Source of the DNA: a virus
Direction: 5' to 3' (one strand)
DNA length: 64,000 nt
IMG/VR virus record: IMGVR_UViG_3300035696_000018
Span: 32,001-96,000 of that record
This document shows, in pieces, positions 18,712 through 32,078 of this stretch; within the stretch, counting starts at the first letter, position 1; every line of letters starts with the position of its first letter. Below the pieces are notes generated by a model, which saw nothing but the letters and a program-made list of their open reading frames with translations, did not search any database and was not told the origin of the DNA. The translations under genes were made by a program, and so were the position numbers.

Positions 18712-18725
18712 GCTATTTATAACGT

Positions 18726-20181: not shown

Positions 20182-21336
20182 ATGATATTCAACACGTTTG
20201 ACCCCAATCAAGACATTGTAGCTGGCCGTGTAACACGGGTGGCAAGTGGATTCTGGCCCGATGGAACTCCCGATTGGGACCAAGGCAATTTCCAAGACGA
20301 TTTTTTCCGCCTGACGGGTTCAGGTACTCCGTCGCCATCAGTCGGCACGTCGAACTATGACGTTCGCCGCACGATGTATTACCTCAACGTATTCCCCGAT
20401 GCGTCGTCTTACGTGAACTATGACCCGTACTTCTCGATTGCATACGGAAACTTCTACGGTGAATATGGAAGTGGCTCCTTCACCCAAGAGTCGGCAAGTA
20501 TTATGGCGTCCCCAACCAAGGCCATCTATACTCAGTACAAGAACGTTCTTCTCGCCAACTCTGACGCCAATGCGACTTCCGATGGAATGTTTTCAATGGT
20601 TAGTGCAAGCACCACGGTTGAAGCTCAAGACATTTGGGTTGTCAACTTCTCGGCTTACAAGATGAAAGACCGCATTGACGAAGGTCTTCTTCAACTCAAT
20701 TTCAGCGGTTCCTCGGGGTCAATCAGTCTCATTGACGACTCCATCTATACGACTCAGAACCAATCGGTATATCAATTGGTTCAAGGAACCATTGCTGCCC
20801 CACCGGGAAGCCCAACCTACCAAGGATTTGGATTGTTCTACCCACAAGCGGGAATTGTCGTTTTGAACGCCACTTTGCTTGCAGCCCAACTTGGAATTAC
20901 CAGTGGGTCTGGTGTAGGGGCTGGAACGGGTGGTCCGTGCCCAGATGGTTCATGGCCATATGTCAGCGGCTCCCTCGGGAACATTGGATACACTTACAAC
21001 CACAAGACTCTATTCGAGTCCATGAACATTTGTCAAGGTATCATGATGAATGTTCGTCGCACTGAATACGTGCCATCAATTCACTACTTCGTGCGTGTGA
21101 TGAACCGTGACTTCAACTACAGCAACAACCCGACGTACGTCTATGACGGAACGGACGGAGTTCACCCGAAGGGTCAAATTTACAACTCAGACTTCATTAC
21201 TGACCCGAGGACGTACATTACCACGGTAGGATTGTATGACAATAGCAACAATCTCATAGCCGTAGCAAAATTGAGCCGACCTGCCGTCAAGTCTTTTGAC
21301 GAAGAGTTGCTCATCAAGGTCAGACTCGATTTCTAA
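20182..21336 (+). CDS. virion structural protein
   Basis: C-terminal TYITTVGLYD..LIAVAKLSRP..KVRLDF, shared with 28682..31123. Confidence 0.6.
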   Translation: MIFNTFDPNQDIVAGRVTRVASGFWPDGTPDWDQGNFQDDFFRLTGSGTPSPSVGTSNYDVRRTMYYLNVFPDASSYVNYDPYFSIAYGNFYGEYGSGSFTQESASIMASPTKAIYTQYKNVLLANSDANATSDGMFSMVSASTTVEAQDIWVVNFSAYKMKDRIDEGLLQLNFSGSSGSISLIDDSIYTTQNQSVYQLVQGTIAAPPGSPTYQGFGLFYPQAGIVVLNATLLAAQLGITSGSGVGAGTGGPCPDGSWPYVSGSLGNIGYTYNHKTLFESMNICQGIMMNVRRTEYVPSIHYFVRVMNRDFNYSNNPTYVYDGTDGVHPKGQIYNSDFITDPRTYITTVGLYDNSNNLIAVAKLSRPAVKSFDEELLIKVRLDF

Positions 21337-21350
21337 TACGTCCTGAATGA

Positions 21351-22526
21351 ATGATAAAGCACATCAATCACCAGAATGTCTCGACGACGCCGTTCGTTGC
21401 GGCTAAGTCTCGTGCTTTATCTAACATTCAGAATGCGGATACTGTAATTCTCGAACCATCTGGCTATCCAGATGGAACCAATGTATCGCTCGACTACATT
21501 GATTACAATTCGGGAGACCCCATCATCAACCGAGAGTGCGACATTGCTCTTGAGCAGCAAGACCTCGACTCACTTGGTTATGAAGAGGGCATCACTGGTT
21601 CTGCGAAGTTCAATCCCGACACGGACCCCCAAAACACTGATGGAACGTACAAAAGCCTCGTCCATCGAACGATTAAGAATGCTTTCTACAACGATTACCG
21701 GAACCCCACGGAAATCTTCGGTATTGAGCATATTGACTTCCCATTAAGTAAAACTCTCCGAAACCTTTCCGACAAGTTCAGGATGTTCAGCATTCCTCAA
21801 CTTGTGTTTGGCGACAAAATCAAGCCCCAAAGCGTACAGTTTTACGATAACCTCCTTGATGACAATGTTGTCATTACGGATGATGGGTATCAAAATCTAG
21901 TCGCTGGCACCAACCTCTTCTCGAAGGTCCAAGAGGTCAGATTTTATCCATCGGGAGGAAACTATGTCATCACGGGGTCGGTCACTTCAAGTTACATTTG
22001 CCCGACGTACACGGATACCAAATCGGTCTCGGATGGGGATGCTGGCTATATGTTTGTCGGATTTTGCAGTGGAAGCATATTCGATACCACTGTCTTTGTT
22101 TTTCAATCTCAATCTGTACAAGCAAACATTGCATTCCAATATGGAAGCCTTGCTAATGGAGTAGCAAAGACCGAGTATCCGGTAATGAATCTGTCATTTT
22201 TGAGTGGTTCATTGCTTAATGCCATCGTTTCTTCGTCGTACCCACCAGAGTCAGCTTCATTTAGTATGGGATTCTTGAGCGGTTCTATCTTCGATACCCT
22301 TATTTATATCAATGGAGGTAGTGATACCGGGTCAATGGCGAGCATTGGATTCTTGAGCGGGTCCATTTTTGACACTTTGATTGCCGTTTCTGGAAGCAAC
22401 GAAACCTCGTCTTTCGTAATGACTTTCTTAAGCGGTTCAGTATTTACTGGACTGGTAATAGCCCCGTCTCAATACGAAAGCAGCGGGACGCTACAAATCG
22501 GATTTAACAGCGGTTACATTACGTAA
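21351..22526 (+). CDS. virion structural protein with C-terminal FLSGSIFDT repeats
   Basis: N-terminal ~195 aa paralogous to 23932..24648; about seven xxGFLSGSIFDT-like repeats. Confidence 0.6.
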   Translation: MIKHINHQNVSTTPFVAAKSRALSNIQNADTVILEPSGYPDGTNVSLDYIDYNSGDPIINRECDIALEQQDLDSLGYEEGITGSAKFNPDTDPQNTDGTYKSLVHRTIKNAFYNDYRNPTEIFGIEHIDFPLSKTLRNLSDKFRMFSIPQLVFGDKIKPQSVQFYDNLLDDNVVITDDGYQNLVAGTNLFSKVQEVRFYPSGGNYVITGSVTSSYICPTYTDTKSVSDGDAGYMFVGFCSGSIFDTTVFVFQSQSVQANIAFQYGSLANGVAKTEYPVMNLSFLSGSLLNAIVSSSYPPESASFSMGFLSGSIFDTLIYINGGSDTGSMASIGFLSGSIFDTLIAVSGSNETSSFVMTFLSGSVFTGLVIAPSQYESSGTLQIGFNSGYIT

Positions 22527-23931: not shown

Positions 23932-24648
23932 ATGATTAAGCAACTCAAAAAGACGGACGTAATGGTTTCGCCTTTCCGTGCCAACAAGGCACGGGAGTTG
24001 TTTAATGTACAGAACTCGTCGTGCCCCATTCTTGAAGAGTTATCTTCGAGCGTAGAGATTCCCGACACCCAAATCGCTCTCGACTACATTGACTACATCA
24101 CGGGGGAGCCATTGCTCAACCGTGATTGCAATATCGCCCTTGAGCAACAGGACGAAGACATAGCCGTTTACGAGGAAGGAGTGAGCGGCAGCTTGAAACC
24201 GTATAACCCCTCTGTGGATTCCTTCAACATCACTGGCACGTCAAAATTGCTTCTCTACAATCAGATGCGGCAGGCTTTTTATAACGGTTATCAAAACCCG
24301 ACCGAACTGTTTGGAATGGAGAATATTGACCTTCAACTGTCGAAAACGAATCGTTTTTTGGCAGATGATTTCCGAATGTTTACGATTCCCCGTCTCACGA
24401 TGGGAGACCGAATTCAGCCAGGAAGTGTCCAGTTTCAGGATACGGCGTTCGATGACAATGTTCGGATTCAAGATGATTCCAACGGCAACCTGATTGCGGG
24501 GGATTACCTATTCTCGAAGATTCAAGAGGTCCGACTTATTGGAAATCAAATCTTGCAAGGTTCGGCTTCTTACAGTTGTTCTGTCTATTATGAGGGGCCA
24601 CCAATGTTCATACCTAAAATCACTGCAAGCTATACGCTTCCCCCATAA
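23932..24648 (+). CDS. virion structural protein, paralog of the 21351 N-terminal domain
   Basis: LDYIDY..G.P..NR.C.IALEQQD, FRMF.IP....GD.I.P.SVQF.D and FSK.QEVR are shared with 21351. Confidence 0.6.
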   Translation: MIKQLKKTDVMVSPFRANKARELFNVQNSSCPILEELSSSVEIPDTQIALDYIDYITGEPLLNRDCNIALEQQDEDIAVYEEGVSGSLKPYNPSVDSFNITGTSKLLLYNQMRQAFYNGYQNPTELFGMENIDLQLSKTNRFLADDFRMFTIPRLTMGDRIQPGSVQFQDTAFDDNVRIQDDSNGNLIAGDYLFSKIQEVRLIGNQILQGSASYSCSVYYEGPPMFIPKITASYTLPP

Positions 24649-26381
24649 TGAATGCATCGGTATTAGTGAACTGGACGTACCAAGGAACCGATGATACCGG
24701 CTTTCTGTTGGAACGCTCCACCGACTCGGGGTCTTCATATCCCCTCGAATGGGGGTTCGATAAGAATACCCTGACGTACACTGATACGGATGTTGTTGTC
24801 AATGGAACGTATTGGTATCGAGTCGCTGCTAGAAACACAAATGGACTTGGCGGTTTCAGCAATTTGGCAGTCGTTTTCATTTCTCCACCTGCCTTTGACC
24901 AGACTCTCCTTACAGCGTCTCAATACAACTACGAACTGCAAGTCAACTTGAGTTGGAGTTACTCTGGGTCAAGTCAAGGAAATACAGATTTCTTCTTGGT
25001 CGAAAAGTCAAGTGATTTGGGAGCAACGTATCCAGTTTCGTGGTCGGTGACGGCCCCAGCATCAACTTGGAGTGATAATCTCCCGATGACTTACAGCAGT
25101 TACTATGATTATCGGGTCACTCCACATATTGACTTGAACCTTTACGGCCCTCCGAGCAACGTTTCTCGCTCGTTCATGCAAGCCCCGATTGGAACCGTGT
25201 ACACTTGGCAAACGGGGTCATCCGCAATAGCTTTTTGGAACTATCTAGGAACGTATTCAATGTCGCTTTCTCGTTCGGCGGATGGTGGAGTGACATGGCC
25301 ATTGACGACGGTCATTACTCCTTCATCATCGTCAACTTACTATTTCATTGATAACTCCACGTCTGCTGGAACGACCTATACGTATAGGATTCAAGAAATC
25401 GCTCGTCCAAATCAGCCAAATAGCACAGGTCCAGAAAAAACCATTCTCCAATATTCGACAACGACGAGTCTAGCATACGCAAGCGACCCTGGATATGACT
25501 ATTCGAATGTCGGCGACCTGATTACATGGGAACTTCACACCGCCTCGTTGCTTCAAGCAAATGACTCGGCCCGTGGCCAGTTTAGTATCAGCCGATTTTT
25601 GTTGGGTGGGGATGAGGGGCACGTCAACTGGCATGGTGGGTATCAGTTTTTGACCTTCCAATTGCTTGGTCCAACCGAGAGTATTTGGCCAACCTTTGGA
25701 AATCACGACCAAGCTGATATGGGTGGTGGTGCGGCATTCATTCACTATTTCGGATTGAGAACCGTCAACTACACTTGGAAAGAAGGATGCGTTCAAGGTT
25801 TTGTCATTCAAACCGTCTCCGAGACCGATACGACAATGACAAGTGGAAGTGCCCCGTGGCTATTTTTGAGTCGTTCGCTGTCATCTTCATTGAATGACCC
25901 GAGTGTAGCGTGGAGAATTGCGATGATTCACTCTTCTCCAATCTGTTCTCCGTTTTTGCATCCGCCAAACCCATTGGCATCCGCTATTCCGTGGCAACAA
26001 TGGGGAGTAAATATAGTGTTTTCGGGGCATAATCACATTGCAGAACGACTTGAATCTGGCTCAGTTCTTCATGTGATGAATGGAACATTTGCCAATTCCA
26101 AGACGAATTACTATCTGCGTGGGTCTCCCCATCCATATAGCAAAAACATATTCTCCAATGCAAATGACGGAAACGGCCCATATTTCAAAGGATACCTTTG
26201 GAACAACATTCTGGCGACTCCGCAGTACTTGTCCATGTCCTTTTACAGCGGTTCGACGAAAGTTCCCGACACGTCATCAACGTCAATCCCAGGTGCCCAT
26301 ATGGATGGAGGAAGTTTCATTTGGCAACATCTCCCGCCGCTTGCAACTCCATCGTTAACTTCCAGCACATTGTCCGTTTAA
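24648..26381 (+). CDS. fibronectin type III repeat protein with calcineurin-like metallophosphoesterase domain
   Basis: Three FN3-like units (e.g. YWYRVAARN); phosphoesterase motifs SDPG, GGD, GNHD, IHSSP, SGHNH. Confidence 0.7.
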   Translation: MNASVLVNWTYQGTDDTGFLLERSTDSGSSYPLEWGFDKNTLTYTDTDVVVNGTYWYRVAARNTNGLGGFSNLAVVFISPPAFDQTLLTASQYNYELQVNLSWSYSGSSQGNTDFFLVEKSSDLGATYPVSWSVTAPASTWSDNLPMTYSSYYDYRVTPHIDLNLYGPPSNVSRSFMQAPIGTVYTWQTGSSAIAFWNYLGTYSMSLSRSADGGVTWPLTTVITPSSSSTYYFIDNSTSAGTTYTYRIQEIARPNQPNSTGPEKTILQYSTTTSLAYASDPGYDYSNVGDLITWELHTASLLQANDSARGQFSISRFLLGGDEGHVNWHGGYQFLTFQLLGPTESIWPTFGNHDQADMGGGAAFIHYFGLRTVNYTWKEGCVQGFVIQTVSETDTTMTSGSAPWLFLSRSLSSSLNDPSVAWRIAMIHSSPICSPFLHPPNPLASAIPWQQWGVNIVFSGHNHIAERLESGSVLHVMNGTFANSKTNYYLRGSPHPYSKNIFSNANDGNGPYFKGYLWNNILATPQYLSMSFYSGSTKVPDTSSTSIPGAHMDGGSFIWQHLPPLATPSLTSSTLSV

Positions 26382-26396
26382 CCGATATTTATATCT

Positions 26397-26975
26397 ATGG
26401 CATACGCCGCACTCATAACTTGGAATTACGTCCTCTCCGATGAAACGGGATTTTTGTTGCAACGTTCAACAAACTCTGGTTCGACGTGGACGTTGAATCT
26501 TCCGCAACCTGTGACCACTTCTTATGTGGATGCAGCCGTTGTGACGTACGGTACGTACTGGTATCGAATTGCCGCAACCAACCAATATGGAACGGGGTCA
26601 TTTAGTAACACGGGCAGTGTTTTCATTCCTGTCCTTCCACCAAATCCTCCAAGCAACCTGATGCTCGCAAGTGGGTCGGTTAGTGCGTCATGGCAATCTG
26701 GGTCAGTAGATTCCAATCATGGACCAACTGATTACTACACCTTTCAGAAATCTTTCGATGGCATCAACTTTTCGGAACTTCGTGTGACTCTCATTGAATC
26801 CACGATTGATACGAATGTTACGGCAAGTGTGGGTACAGGAAGTACTTACTGGTATGACGTTGCCGCAGTTAATACCGCTGGAACTTCAAGTTTCACTCCA
26901 ACGGCAAGCATTTCATTTACGTATAATCCAATTCCGCAGGCCGTTCCAAGATTGACTGCGAGTATCGTACCTTAA
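26397..26975 (+). CDS. two-domain fibronectin type III protein
   Basis: YWYRIAATNQYGTGSFSN; YWYDVAAVNTAGTS. Confidence 0.75.
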   Translation: MAYAALITWNYVLSDETGFLLQRSTNSGSTWTLNLPQPVTTSYVDAAVVTYGTYWYRIAATNQYGTGSFSNTGSVFIPVLPPNPPSNLMLASGSVSASWQSGSVDSNHGPTDYYTFQKSFDGINFSELRVTLIESTIDTNVTASVGTGSTYWYDVAAVNTAGTSSFTPTASISFTYNPIPQAVPRLTASIVP

Positions 26976-26988
26976 CCACTAGAAACAT

Positions 26989-28647
26989 ATGGCAGGCGTA
27001 GCATCATCAATCAAATTGTTTACGGTTCCTCAAGCTGGTGGTACACTTACCGCCAGTTTTGCATCGGCTCAATCTATTTCACTAGGAGGCACTTCGACAG
27101 CTTTATCGGCATCAGGATTTTCTGCGACCATTCACGTCACGGCGAGCACTATAACTGCTGGTGGATATACCTTTAATGGATGGTATAACGGTGCTTCTCT
27201 GTTATCATCAAACGTTACTTATTCGTTCACAATAACAACTGGACAAAACGTATATTCAGCAAGTTTCTCGGGGGGCGGTGGACCGACAAACTATTCGGTG
27301 TCTCTCGCTGATAGCCCGAGTGGAAATTCCGTTCTCAGTGGAAGTGGTGTTTTTGCTTCGGGGAGTACCGTAACCGCCGCCGTGGGTCCGAACTATGGAT
27401 ATACCTTTTTGCAATGGACAACTGGTTCGGTCACTGCAAGTCTTTCTCCGACCTATTCATTTTCCATTGCCAACAACACTCAGCTTACAGCAAGCTTGGG
27501 GACAGCACCATTTTCAGTATCATTGGTCGCAAGTCCATCAGGAGATGCTACCCTAAGCGGCAGCGGAATCTTCCTTTCAGGGAGCACCGTGAGTGTTTCC
27601 GCAGGGCCAAACTATGGCTATACATTTTTGAACTGGACCTCGGCGTCAGTCAATGTCAGCACAAGTCCAACTTATTCGTTTGCCATTGGCAATACTCAAC
27701 AACTTACAGCAAGCCTCGGGAATGCGAGTTTCACGGCTTCCATCGCTGTAACCCCTTCTGGGTCTGCCTCTCTCAGCGGCAGTGGAATATACGTGTCGGG
27801 CAGCTTGGTGACAATTACGGCGACTCCTATTTTTGGATACGCCTTCAATGTTTGGACAACTGGCTCGGTAACGGCAAGTTCTTCTCCATCCTATACATTT
27901 GCCCTCGGAGAAAACGATTATTACACCGCCAGCGTTTACCCCGTGTACTATACGGTCTATACCGTAGATAACCCATTGGGAAGCACTGTCCTCAGTGGAA
28001 GCGGAACGTTTTTGTCGGGGAGCACTATTAGCGTCACTGCCACGGCGAATGCGGGATTCACCCCAGGAAGTTGGCTGACTGGCTCGACTACGGCAAGTGC
28101 ATTGCCAACTTATACGTTTGTTCTTGGAAGTGATACCTACCTTACTGCAAGCACAGACCCGATTTTCTACACGATAAATGCCGTCGCCATACCAGTTGGA
28201 AATGGAACAGCCACAGGCAGTGGAGTGTATCCGTACAATGGCACCGTGACATTGACCGAGAATACAAACTCTCGTTGTATTTTCGTTTCGTGGCTTGACG
28301 AAGGTGGGTCTCAACTAAGTACAAGCCAAAGTTACACTTTTACGGCAACTCGCAATGCGGTGATTACTGCTTCTTTCTACCACATACCATCGGTATCGTT
28401 GAACTGGGCGTACGACCTCACGGACGAAACGGTGTTTATGCTCCAACGTTCTAGCGATGGTCAAATAACATGGCCAGTTACAATATTCACCACGTCCACG
28501 CAGTCGGTAGATTACGACATAGCATACGACATCGAGTTGGGGGCACAATATTGGTATCAGGTTGCAGCAGTCAATAGTTATGGAACGGGGTCTTTCAGCA
28601 ACGTGGCGTACGTGAATATACCAGGGTTAATCCCGCCGCCCGTCTAA
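26989..28647 (+). CDS. InlB B-repeat-like (Flg_new-type) tandem-repeat protein with C-terminal FN3
   Basis: About six ~73-aa repeats (LSGSG.F.SGS.V...A.P..GY.F..W......S.SPTYSF) followed by YWYQVAAVNSYG. Confidence 0.7.
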   Translation: MAGVASSIKLFTVPQAGGTLTASFASAQSISLGGTSTALSASGFSATIHVTASTITAGGYTFNGWYNGASLLSSNVTYSFTITTGQNVYSASFSGGGGPTNYSVSLADSPSGNSVLSGSGVFASGSTVTAAVGPNYGYTFLQWTTGSVTASLSPTYSFSIANNTQLTASLGTAPFSVSLVASPSGDATLSGSGIFLSGSTVSVSAGPNYGYTFLNWTSASVNVSTSPTYSFAIGNTQQLTASLGNASFTASIAVTPSGSASLSGSGIYVSGSLVTITATPIFGYAFNVWTTGSVTASSSPSYTFALGENDYYTASVYPVYYTVYTVDNPLGSTVLSGSGTFLSGSTISVTATANAGFTPGSWLTGSTTASALPTYTFVLGSDTYLTASTDPIFYTINAVAIPVGNGTATGSGVYPYNGTVTLTENTNSRCIFVSWLDEGGSQLSTSQSYTFTATRNAVITASFYHIPSVSLNWAYDLTDETVFMLQRSSDGQITWPVTIFTTSTQSVDYDIAYDIELGAQYWYQVAAVNSYGTGSFSNVAYVNIPGLIPPPV

Positions 28648-28681: not shown

Positions 28682-31123
28682 ATGTACGTCAATGTTCTAA
28701 ACAACAACTACGGCTACGCAGTGGCGACTTACGGCAACTACGTTGTCGTCTCCAACCCTGACCTTCTCCGATGGAATTCCGCAACTGCTTCGTTGCAGCA
28801 TTCGGGGACCGTGGATGTGTTTTTATACAACCGTGCCAAAGACGAGCACGATTACGTAGGAACGCTTTATCAGGTGTGGCGTCCGATGGATGTTCTCATG
28901 ACTTCGGAAGTCGTTTCTGCCTCGTGGCATATCACGACCGAAAACAACAATTGGTATCCCGATTATCAGATTTCGATTGACAAAGACCTCTACACGTCTT
29001 CCCTCGAAAACTCTTTTGGCAAATCTCTCGACATGTATGAGAATCTGGTGGTCGTCGGCACGCCTTATCTCACACAGGTATCTCAAACGACTGCCAGCTT
29101 TCTAACTGCATCTTACGCAATGGCAGAGGTTTATGACCTGAACGCACTCAAATGGACTGCCAATAGTCATAGTGCCGCCACGTTCACGATTGACGACCCA
29201 GACCTGTACATTGACCCCAATGCCGTGACAGGCTCGTTCGGGTGGTCGGTCTCAATCAGCAAAGATTGGCTCGCCGTGGGGTCTCCATTTTACAGTGCCT
29301 CCAACGGAGCGGTGTATATCTACAAAAATGTGAGTGCGGGGAACAATTACTCATGGTCGTTGTTCCAAAAAATCACCAGCCCAGAAACTTTCGACCAAGC
29401 ACAATTCGGCTTTAGCATGAAATTGAACAAGGCCGATAGCCAATACTCTTGGAGTTTGGTGGTAGGAAATGGGAACCCATCTGCTATTGAAGCATACCTG
29501 TACGAATACAGCGGAAGTGCGTGGTCACAATCCTATGTATTCCACCCCGATTACACCAACATGCCGTTGACGTTCAATCCGAAGTATTACGCACCACCAG
29601 GACAATTTCAGACCGTGTATGGCCCCGTGGACTTCCTTACGATGAACACCACCAATGGATTCGGATATTCGGTGGGGTGCTACGATGATTCCGTCATCAT
29701 CGGAGAACCATATGACCGTATGTTCTACGAGTTCAGCGGGTCAACGCTTTATCAACAGGGTTCAGCATACATATTCGAGCGTTGCACAGATTACCCACAC
29801 GGCTTCCAACAAGTTCTTAAGACCTATGGAACTCCTACCACCCTCTACAACAACCGCATGGGATGGTCCGTGGATATGTGGGGAACTAACGCCGTAGTAG
29901 GCATTCCAAAGCTTGATGTTGAGAGCATGACTTCGTGCTACATTGCGGGAACATTGAACCAACTTCACTATTGCAACGCCGACCTTCAAACACTTTTGAC
30001 TGGTCAAGCTATGCTTGTTCAGAAAAATACTGGGTCTGGTCAATGGGGCATCACCAACGTCTATCAGAAGAAGAAGAAATACCTCAGCCCATATCGTGAT
30101 TTCGGGTATGACGTTGCCGTAGCCGATGAATCAATGGTTGTAGGTTCCCCGATGTATCTATGGGATAGCAATCGTGAAATCAACATTGTCGTTACCCAGA
30201 GTGCTGATACTAACCTCGACGACCTTACGGGAAAAGCATACATTTACAATCTGCACAACCTCCGTGACCAGTTCCACGTTGGAAACGTATTCTATCGAAA
30301 CGGAAAGATTGTCATCATGACTTCTGGCTCGGTGTTTGATGGGTTGTTCTACGCCCCAATCAATACCTACACTTACGAATACGATTTGGAGTTCGAGAGT
30401 CAGCACACCATCCTTGAGAAACAAATCATTTGCACCGTGGACCCAGGCGAATTCAACGTAAGCACCAACCCATCCTCGGTTACGAAACAAGCCTCGATTT
30501 TGGACATCAACAACAACGGGGTGTTCGATTTCCAAGACGTGGACGTGATTCTTCGTTACATGCAGTACAAGAATACGCAGATTCTCGGCCTTCCAACCTC
30601 GTTCAATTGGAGTTCGTCCATTGTTACGACAGACGACGAGATAAGTTTACTGAACTACTATCAGGCCAACACTGATAGCAGCACGACGTTGTTCTATTTG
30701 AGTCAGAGTTTCAATACTTGGGAGAACGTGGATACTTCCATGCAAACCACCTTGGATTTGAACCAAGATAATCGCATTGATATTCGGGACATGAATATCA
30801 TGTGGAAGTACTTCTCCAATCGTTTGACTCAAGAGAACTATGCCACTTTCATTACCCCAGCGTGTAACCGTCGTTTGTTTAGCGACGTAATAGATTACCT
30901 CAACGGTTTGAGCAGGAAGTTCGCTCTGCCGACGATTCAAGCCCAATTCACGGATTACGAGCGTCTTTCGACGTTCGACAAGACAGGCTCGTATTTAGCC
31001 CCAATGGCCACTACAATCGGTTTGTACGATGGGTTAAGCCTTGTGGCCGTGGCCAAGCTTGGCACGCCAATCAAGATAACACCCGAATTGCCCATAAATT
31101 TCGTGGTGAAAATGGACTTCTAA
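28682..31123 (+). CDS. FG-GAP-like beta-propeller virion protein with dockerin/EF-hand-like loops
   Basis: Repeated FG.SV....LAVG.P; LDINNNGVFDFQD and LDLNQDNRIDIRD; C-terminal TTIGLYD..VAVAKL..P..KMDF. Confidence 0.65.
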   Translation: MYVNVLNNNYGYAVATYGNYVVVSNPDLLRWNSATASLQHSGTVDVFLYNRAKDEHDYVGTLYQVWRPMDVLMTSEVVSASWHITTENNNWYPDYQISIDKDLYTSSLENSFGKSLDMYENLVVVGTPYLTQVSQTTASFLTASYAMAEVYDLNALKWTANSHSAATFTIDDPDLYIDPNAVTGSFGWSVSISKDWLAVGSPFYSASNGAVYIYKNVSAGNNYSWSLFQKITSPETFDQAQFGFSMKLNKADSQYSWSLVVGNGNPSAIEAYLYEYSGSAWSQSYVFHPDYTNMPLTFNPKYYAPPGQFQTVYGPVDFLTMNTTNGFGYSVGCYDDSVIIGEPYDRMFYEFSGSTLYQQGSAYIFERCTDYPHGFQQVLKTYGTPTTLYNNRMGWSVDMWGTNAVVGIPKLDVESMTSCYIAGTLNQLHYCNADLQTLLTGQAMLVQKNTGSGQWGITNVYQKKKKYLSPYRDFGYDVAVADESMVVGSPMYLWDSNREINIVVTQSADTNLDDLTGKAYIYNLHNLRDQFHVGNVFYRNGKIVIMTSGSVFDGLFYAPINTYTYEYDLEFESQHTILEKQIICTVDPGEFNVSTNPSSVTKQASILDINNNGVFDFQDVDVILRYMQYKNTQILGLPTSFNWSSSIVTTDDEISLLNYYQANTDSSTTLFYLSQSFNTWENVDTSMQTTLDLNQDNRIDIRDMNIMWKYFSNRLTQENYATFITPACNRRLFSDVIDYLNGLSRKFALPTIQAQFTDYERLSTFDKTGSYLAPMATTIGLYDGLSLVAVAKLGTPIKITPELPINFVVKMDF

Positions 31124-31155
31124 CGATATTTATAACTGTAAGGAAATAGACGACT

Positions 31156-31520: not shown

Positions 31521-32078
31521 ATGAACCAGAATAAACACCGAAATAAACTGTTGGGTAAACGCTTTGGAAAACTCATCGTAGAAAAAATTGTAGGAGCCGA
31601 TAAACGCCACAATTCTATATGCCAGTGTCTTTGCGACTGTGGAAATAGAAAAAACGTTTTGTCATACAGGCTAAAAATTAAGCATACCAAAAGTTGCGGA
31701 TGCGAAAAGAACAAGCGGAGTCTTCGACCATATGAATGGCTATACCACCTACTTAAAATTTCGGCAAAGAGGACGGGTCGAAACGTTGATATGACGTTCC
31801 AAGAATTTTTGTCTTTTACTACGGTAAAAAACTGTCAATATTGTGGGGCGGAAATTGAATGGCCCCAATTCAATAAGAAGGGTGAAAATAAGTCTTATTA
31901 CTTGGACCGAAAAGATAATGATGATGGATATACAAAAAACAATTGTGTTGTTTGTTGTCGGCGGTGCAATTGGATAAAGGGAAATGAATTTACTTATAGT
32001 GAGATGCTCAAATTGGGGGAATCTGTCAGAGAAATATTGAATTCTCGCATCAAAACTAGGAATGGCTCCTATGTATAG
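31521..32078 (+). CDS. HNH-family homing endonuclease
   Basis: GKRFGKLIV..C.CDCGN..SCGC N-terminal domain; CQYCG..LDRKDN..GY...NCVVCCRRCN..K. Confidence 0.8.
   Translation: MNQNKHRNKLLGKRFGKLIVEKIVGADKRHNSICQCLCDCGNRKNVLSYRLKIKHTKSCGCEKNKRSLRPYEWLYHLLKISAKRTGRNVDMTFQEFLSFTTVKNCQYCGAEIEWPQFNKKGENKSYYLDRKDNDDGYTKNNCVVCCRRCNWIKGNEFTYSEMLKLGESVREILNSRIKTRNGSYV

Follow-up and report, generated by a model that had tools for sequence, protein, structure and literature searches.

A beta-sandwich can be split so that its terminal strand serves as a tag for the rest of the domain, as in SpyTag/SpyCatcher, an engineered split of CnaB2 that is locked by an isopeptide bond. Here we describe a phage locus in which gene boundaries appear to split fibronectin type III (FN3) domains in a comparable way. 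The locus lies in a 64,000-nucleotide (nt) stretch of DNA (IMG/VR record IMGVR_UViG_3300035696_000018, positions 32,001 to 96,000; the whole stretch is called the window below), which comes from a 106.8-kb fragment of an uncultured phage, large and T4-like, and comprises four co-directional genes, O1 to O4 (window positions 23932-28647). As in SpyTag, the tag would be a terminal strand of a split beta-sandwich, but the tails found here have no conserved Lys/Asp pair.

Completion of one protein's fold by a strand of its neighbor has been described for two kinds of pili and for one phage appendage. In chaperone-usher pili the subunits lack the C-terminal G strand of the fold, the donor is an N-terminal extension of the next subunit, and a periplasmic chaperone and an usher are required (PMC13655056). 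The type V pili of Bacteroidota (FimA, Mfa1) assemble through protease-mediated strand exchange, in which a C-terminal donor replaces a removed N-terminal strand (PMC13655056). In the tripod of Lactococcus phage Tuc2009, a C-terminal hairpin of BppU completes the beta-sheet of BppA and produces a titin-like composite (Legrand et al., 2016; PMC4742702). There is thus a documented case of such completion between two phage proteins, and an earlier sequence-only reading of this locus, which knew of no such description in phages, put the case too strongly. Phage structural proteins may also carry immunoglobulin (Ig)-like domains that are appended by programmed frameshifting (Fraser et al., 2006; reviewed in PMC5009743).

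In the locus described here, O1, O2 and O3 each end in a proline-rich peptide followed by one beta-strand, O2 and O3 each begin with an FN3 domain that starts at strand B, and O4 carries an FN3 domain of the same type at its C-terminus. We refer to these incomplete domains as acceptors and to the terminal peptides as putative donor tails:

23932..24648, + strand: O1 (adaptor B), 238 amino acids (aa); an attachment domain of ~215 aa in common with its paralogue adaptor A, then a C-terminal tail
24595..24645, + strand: donor tail 1 (GPPMFIPKITASYTLPP), an FN3 A strand at the C-terminus of O1
24648..26381, + strand: O2, 577 aa; acceptor FN3, two more FN3 domains and a predicted purple-acid-phosphatase-like metallophosphoesterase
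24648..24881, + strand: acceptor FN3 of O2, beginning at strand B, without strand A
26331..26378, + strand: donor tail 2 (LPPLATPSLTSSTLSV), C-terminus of O2
26397..26975, + strand: O3, 192 aa; acceptor FN3, a complete FN3 and donor tail 3
26925..26972, + strand: donor tail 3 (NPIPQAVPRLTASIVP), C-terminus of O3, partner uncertain
26989..28647, + strand: O4, 552 aa; six InlB-type B-repeats, then a C-terminal acceptor-type FN3, no donor tail
28384-28644, + strand: acceptor-type FN3 of O4, with ..HIPSVSLNW.. at residue 466

The three junctions differ in their layout. At O1/O2 the stop and start overlap as TAATG, with O2 in the -1 frame; between O2 and O3, which share a frame, lie one TAA and five codons; O4 is in the +1 frame and begins after a gap of 13 nt behind O3. 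The N-termini MNASVLVNW (O2) and MAYAALITW (O3) each place eight residues before the strand-B tryptophan. The sequence-only reading had held that three successive genes end in a peptide resembling strand A, that O2 and O3 start at strand B and O4 carries an FN3 domain without strand A, that the acceptors share motifs such as D[DE]TxFxLxRS, and that O4 ends in IPPPV without a donor strand. The gene ends and starts were as it described, and the three acceptor domains align at 40-56% identity and have in common both motifs that it quoted, D[DE]TxFxLxRS and WYx[VI]AAxNxxGxGxFSN. Among the 206 open reading frames (ORFs) of at least 80 aa on the whole 106.8-kb contig, a P..P..[LIV][TS][AS][ST] tail occurs only in O1, O2 and O3 and the N-terminal acceptor pattern only in O2 and O3; because both patterns are confined to these genes, they are not due to chance. 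Logan contigs from two peat-metagenome runs, one of which may be the sample of origin, cross all three junctions with zero differences, which makes a homopolymer error at a run of five C residues at O1/O2 unlikely. An assembly error in this run was rejected separately, as a 990-nt contig of an independent assembly is identical across it.

Each of the known systems resembles this arrangement in part. In common with chaperone-usher pili, an incomplete Ig-like fold would be completed by a strand of the neighboring subunit; there, however, the G strand is missing and the donor is N-terminal, whereas here strand A at the N-terminal side is missing and the donor is C-terminal. Pfam scans of 18 window proteins (O1-O4, four neighboring genes and ten other large ORFs) contained no pilus chaperone or usher, although no search was aimed at such genes. 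In type V pili a C-terminal donor stands in for a missing N-terminal strand and builds a chain non-covalently, and the sequence anatomy of the locus would fit such an insertion. The precursor there is self-complementing and gingipain cleavage opens its groove, whereas here the strand is not encoded: O2 and O3, which start at strand B, carry no N-terminal strand, signal or lipobox. Type V pilins are also non-FN3 lipoproteins that form homopolymers, in contrast to the short, ordered hetero-chain of FN3 proteins that we propose on the virion. Tuc2009 offers the likeness of a C-terminal extension of one virion protein that completes the sheet of a sandwich domain in a separately encoded partner. 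Its 25-residue hairpin, however, is added to the C-terminal domain of the partner, whereas here a single strand A would be added to a domain cut at the A/B loop, and the joint would be used serially along consecutive genes as a conserved, swappable module with fused homologues. The phage groups are unrelated, the present phage being T4-like with genes that lack Shine-Dalgarno sequences. Literature searches returned no description of an FN3 domain cut at the A/B loop by gene boundaries as a serial joint. This cut, its serial use, the presence of fused and split forms in one phage group and the genetic absence of the strand set the locus apart.

We lean, with moderate confidence, toward the explanation that split FN3 domains are complemented in trans and so join separately translated proteins into a modular virion appendage. 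Each upstream protein would end in a proline-rich linker and strand A, and the acceptor of the next protein would begin at strand B; after translation, the tail would pair with the exposed B-strand edge and complete the seven-strand sandwich, giving a tight, non-covalent joint that is pilus-like in kind. The chain would run from the adaptor O1 to the FN3-phosphoesterase O2 and on to the two-FN3 spacer O3, to which the B-repeat protein O4 might be attached through its C-terminal acceptor. The predicted O1-to-O2 and O2-to-O3 links are well supported by sequence comparison; the O3-to-O4 link, whose sole pointer is the acceptor-type FN3 of O4 without strand A, is the weakest. Docking, the order of assembly and any specificity of pairing are what we infer from the observations below.

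Relatives in which the genes are fused identify the tail. In L025, L069 and L061 the adaptor core continues into a complete FN3 domain in one chain, and the junction in L069 reads ..SPPDMPVLTATYNLCSPSVLVTW, nearly a concatenation of the window tail and the start of O2. In L042 a 1649-aa protein has a phosphoesterase domain followed by ..APPTASAIQSGEPTASVSW.., the fused equivalent of the O2/O3 junction. The tail and the acceptor thus correspond to strand A and the remainder of the same domain. Such fusions of adjacent genes were what the sequence-only reading had suggested looking for; no fused O1-O2 or O2-O3 protein was present among candidates of 317-1010 aa.

The split is old, and both of its halves are under selection. 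All 11 homologues of O2 (45-66% identity) start at the same position, M-x(4-5)-LxxW, and ten keep a PPxxxPxL[TS]xST.. tail, which in nine ends within two residues of the same position. Homologue P0012 has no tail and P0006 has two. All O2- and O3-type homologues likewise lack strand A in the same polypeptide, and O2 homologues have tails similar to donor tail 3 (PPQAVPSLTSSTLSI). Selection on the O1 tail acts at the protein level: between the window and L005, the tail codons differ by six synonymous and three conservative changes, and nonsynonymous divergence (pN) is 0.08 and synonymous divergence (pS) 0.62 in the tail, compared with 0.19 and 0.71 in the adaptor core. Downstream of ITAS the two sequences diverge completely. 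Donor tails stand in tandem at the C-terminus of P0006 (alignment A1, columns 590-624; ..PSLSSSLLVE LPPQAIPSLTSSTLLV), which may be a branch point or a recombination scar. An exhaustive profile search was dominated by giant multi-FN3 proteins, with P0174 as the sole match informative on the N-terminal start, and scans of metagenome contigs, genome contigs, viral contigs (query P0002) and a phage collection contained no relative. A combined alignment of O2 and O3 (A4) was not used, because the O3 homologues were misaligned onto the first domain of O2.

We mapped the co-occurrence of tails and acceptors with profile hidden Markov models in 48 loci anchored on the neighboring FG-GAP gene, together with the loci found earlier. 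Of 13 N-terminal acceptor genes, from nine lineages, 10-11 come after a gene with a P..strand tail. Where adaptor B stands directly before the FG-GAP gene, it has a tail-less end (..PSL, ..SPPD, ..IDPS, ..PDYT or ..ADII). The tail is absent from the adaptor in five lineages, and therefore dispensable for the adaptor fold; where a type I or type II acceptor comes next, the tail is always there. Tails are found on proteins without an acceptor (the adaptors), and acceptors on proteins without a tail (the last gene of each chain, and P0012), which excludes complementation within one chain as a general rule.

Tails preceding O2-type acceptors have the form IPxITA and those preceding O3-type acceptors [SV]L[TM][AS][ST]L, which hints that these are pairing classes but could equally reflect co-inheritance. 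As a tentative generalization, split FN3 domains might form a plug-and-socket system of tailed phages at large, in which the two tail classes, each with its own type of socket, would act as a connector code that sets the order of joining. If so, the movement of whole genes would suffice to exchange or add enzymes and binding modules, or to branch them (as the two tails of P0006 might allow), with no need to re-evolve attachment domains. The same observations bear on whether O2 or O3 might instead join to itself, head to tail as a pilus-like homopolymer, or close on itself. Each carries one acceptor and one donor, and all tails follow one general pattern. The tail classes nevertheless track the type of the next acceptor, AlphaFold2 does not place the O2 tail on its own first domain, and the O3 tail, judged from tandem FN3 geometry, would leave from the far end of the second domain and be too short to reach back. 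We hold self-joining to be very improbable.

Structure models and profiles agree with an FN3 fold for the acceptors. The seven-strand FN3 sandwich is marked by Trp in strand B and Tyr in strands C and F. The hallmark residues W9, Y11 and Y57 are invariant in the acceptor domains, and an acceptor-domain profile scored the acceptors of O2, O3 and O4 at 122, 124 and 107 bits, compared with 23-33 bits for three internal FN3 domains of the same genes, a gap that is partly circular because the three window domains were included in the profile. A Pfam scan gave no FN3 family at E <=0.01, and a match in PHROGs was to tail fiber J (5e-7); from the hallmark residues and the models, the acceptor and internal domains alike are predicted to be fibronectin type III folds. 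A single-chain AlphaFold2 model of O2 matches tandem FN3 arrays and had a mean predicted local distance difference test (pLDDT) score of 74, with the first domain (64-80) below the rest of the protein and both the first strand (residues 1-8) and the tail (566-577) disordered, at under 50; the tail was neither docked in cis nor packed elsewhere onto its own protein. We also modeled the chain that read-through would give, consisting of the O2 tail, the spacer and O3. The core of its first FN3 (model residues 41-100) reached pLDDT 85-92, and residues 6-103, which include the supplied strand, superposed on a whole FN3 domain (4n68; Z 12.3, root-mean-square deviation 1.9 A over 93 residues), while donor tail 3 stayed below 50. 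Since a hairpin is simply made with adjacent residues, this model is not a test of binding in trans and shows only that the B edge accepts a strand.

The juxtaposed frames could have another meaning, namely that translational recoding joins the genes covalently, through a -1 slip at O1/O2 and read-through of the lone in-frame TAA at O2/O3, much as Ig-like extensions are added in other phages by +1 or -1 frameshifting. At O1/O2, peptidyl-tRNA-Pro would slip by -1 on C-CCC-CCA at the O1 TAA (candidate site CCCCCATAA) to give ..LPP-I-MNASVLVNW, a product with normal FN3 A-to-B spacing. The run of five C residues directly precedes the O1 stop; ahead of its ATG, O2 has 10 further open codons in frame and overlaps there with the end of O1; and a slip at this junction is mechanistically plausible. 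Four of ~10 junctions (O2/O3 of the window, L018, L015 and L010) are in frame with a single TAA. As published phage extensions use frameshifts in either direction (PMC5009743), the differing frames of the junctions do not by themselves exclude recoding.

Acceptor genes nevertheless have starts of their own, with an ATG kept 5-11 codons before the tryptophan in every one. At the first junction of L030 and in L031, the spacers of 41-43 nt between tail and ATG have stops in all frames; L005 lacks a slippery site and, if fused, would gain a loop of 31 residues. A simple shift could not fuse O3 to O4, because a stop lies in the O4 frame after the O3 stop, and the contig's 34 tRNAs include no suppressor. 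Stop-codon reassignment was rejected on the same absence, all other genes being normal under code 11. O3-type genes, moreover, have their own promoter-like motif, TATTTATA, and the window copy falls inside the spacer that would have to be read through:

26386..26393, + strand: TATTTATA promoter-like motif, within the O2/O3 spacer

The window holds 13 copies of this motif against 0.9 expected, 12 of them on the + strand and most 4-28 nt upstream of start codons (other examples at 1972-1979, 2880-2887, 18714-18721 and 31127-31134). Each of the four O3-type acceptor genes examined has an exact copy 11-28 nt upstream, and one also precedes that of L108. We regard the motif as a candidate late promoter, comparable with the T4 late promoter TATAAATA.

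In the frameshifted Ig-like extensions, as in this locus, Ig/FN3 modules are joined to structural genes at the 3' end, whether or not in frame, and recombination moves them about. Such extensions have no start of their own and are covalently attached to a fraction of the molecules, whereas the genes here are long, have an ATG at strand B and in some cases the promoter-like motif. The O1/O2 junction of the window fits the pattern of such extensions in part (the C-run and the open frame); L030, L031 and O3/O4 do not. Uniform recoding across the junctions is unlikely, and recoding as the explanation of the split seems to us quite improbable. In the acceptor frame, the untranslated codons before the ATG read ..KLYASPI(M) in the window (24618-24647) and ..DVYASDNGNPII(M) in L002 (6938-7000), and may be the remnant of a strand A that the acceptor once had itself; the two stretches use different Ser codons, and in L002 a TTG could still start there.

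Several observations count against strand complementation in trans. Strand A of the read-through model comes from the last residues of the tail and partly from the spacer (LSVQPIFI), and not from PSLTSST. The FN3 domain of O4 directly follows the last B-repeat, without a PP-strand of its own, and the last strand of that repeat (..AVITASFY), being spaced as a canonical A strand would be, could take that role in cis. Three lineages are exceptions to the pairing of tails and acceptors: the 83-kb fragment of L018 shows no adaptor B for its first acceptor, the FG-GAP gene of L008 comes after an O3-like protein whose C-terminus is an orphan partial FN3, and in L010 the donor is unclear. Simple gene fission would likewise leave tails and acceptors together, and because the lineages are related, the counts are not independent.

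An alternative is that the split is a by-product of gene fission and cassette recombination in which no strand is exchanged: the six-strand acceptor would fold and attach otherwise, and the tails would be kept for some other purpose, serving perhaps as linkers or assembly signals or by contacting a further virion protein. The orphan FN3 end of L008 and the first acceptor of L018, which has no visible donor, fit this explanation, as do the mosaic locus (cassettes are present or absent between relatives as close as L001 and the window), the duplicated tail of P0006, a 226-nt deletion between 9-bp repeats in L006 and the near-identical tails on different carriers (the L007 adaptor and P0009, both ..TVLTATLI*). 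In an unused remnant, however, sequence, length and stop position would not be preserved among homologues of 45-66% identity, nor would the tail show a pN/pS of ~0.14. The adaptor fold needs no tail, yet the tail accompanies each following acceptor of type I or II, and the O2 tail is not packed on its own protein in the AlphaFold2 model. We consider the by-product explanation unlikely. As to the chain proposed by the sequence-only reading, the A-strand tails, the strand-B starts, selection, co-occurrence and the lack of a single recoding mechanism bear it out in part, while its link from the O3 tail to the O4 FN3 found no comparative support.

If complementation in trans is correct, it would account for the way in which large environmental phages assemble long appendages of mixed composition from parts with separate genes, here a phosphoesterase, spacers and a B-repeat binder, and for the gain and loss of whole genes between close relatives without loss of attachment. 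It would also give annotators a simple sequence rule that predicts physically linked proteins, and would provide natural, small, non-covalent peptide-domain pairs that could perhaps be reused in protein engineering.

O1-O4 lie within a co-directional structural block with the order 384-aa protein, adaptor A, 458-aa protein, O1 (adaptor B), O2, O3, O4 and FG-GAP/dockerin-like protein, in which two further genes frame the locus:

21351..22526, + strand: adaptor A, 391 aa; N-terminal domain of the O1 type, with its distal part fused in the same chain
28682..31123, + strand: conserved FG-GAP/dockerin-like protein, which closes the variable locus in all relatives

Adaptors A and B are paralogues with a shared 215-aa N-terminal domain, the distal part being fused in A and split off in B. 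The adaptor core ends at ..G[ST]ASYxC, and the domain had no match in Pfam, PHROGs, PDB sequences or Atlas. O2 scored 22.1 bits against Pfam Metallophos (cutoff 21.5); its five catalytic motifs (D280, GGD320-322, GNH351-353, H428 and GHxH460-463) are invariant in 12 sequences, and its top Foldseek matches are plant purple acid phosphatases (E 5e-14; 3zk4, 1xzw, 1kbp). O2 is therefore predicted to be a purple-acid-phosphatase-like metallophosphoesterase with an FN3-like N-domain. O4 is an InlB B-repeat array, with six stretches matching Pfam Flg_new_2 (E 8.6e-41), and no close homologue of it was found. A contig of run X1 has an extra G after 28538 at a depth of ~3.6, which would frameshift the last ~36 codons of the O4 acceptor FN3 and could be a variant or a low-depth error.

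The fragment carries a T4-type portal and large terminase, with a weak match to Baseplate_J, and the DNA of the window is present in peat metagenome runs. Shine-Dalgarno sequences are nearly absent at gene starts throughout the window, and the O3 homologue P0017 is filed in NCBI under a Bacteroidales metagenome-assembled genome; both are weak hints of a host among the Bacteroidota, the phylum that builds type V pili.

Relatives of the locus show further rearrangement. L006 (~6840) and L005 (6842-7067) are near-identical strains, and the deletion between direct repeats of TGGCCGTTG in L006 takes out the greater part of the acceptor FN3 and causes a frameshift. The L007 contig (6753-7452) has a frameshift in one gene, whose two ORFs of 100 and 138 aa together match protein P0018, a single chain of 248 aa. 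TnpB/IS200-605-like transposase genes lie in or beside the fibre locus of L003 (2996-4054) and L001 (7202-8320). Lastly, the 384-aa protein and the 813-aa FG-GAP protein share a C-terminal motif of ~27 residues, ..[LI][IV]AVAKL..P.K...[KR][LM]DF* (window 21260-21333 and 31045-31120), which is kept in all relatives and may be a shared attachment element.

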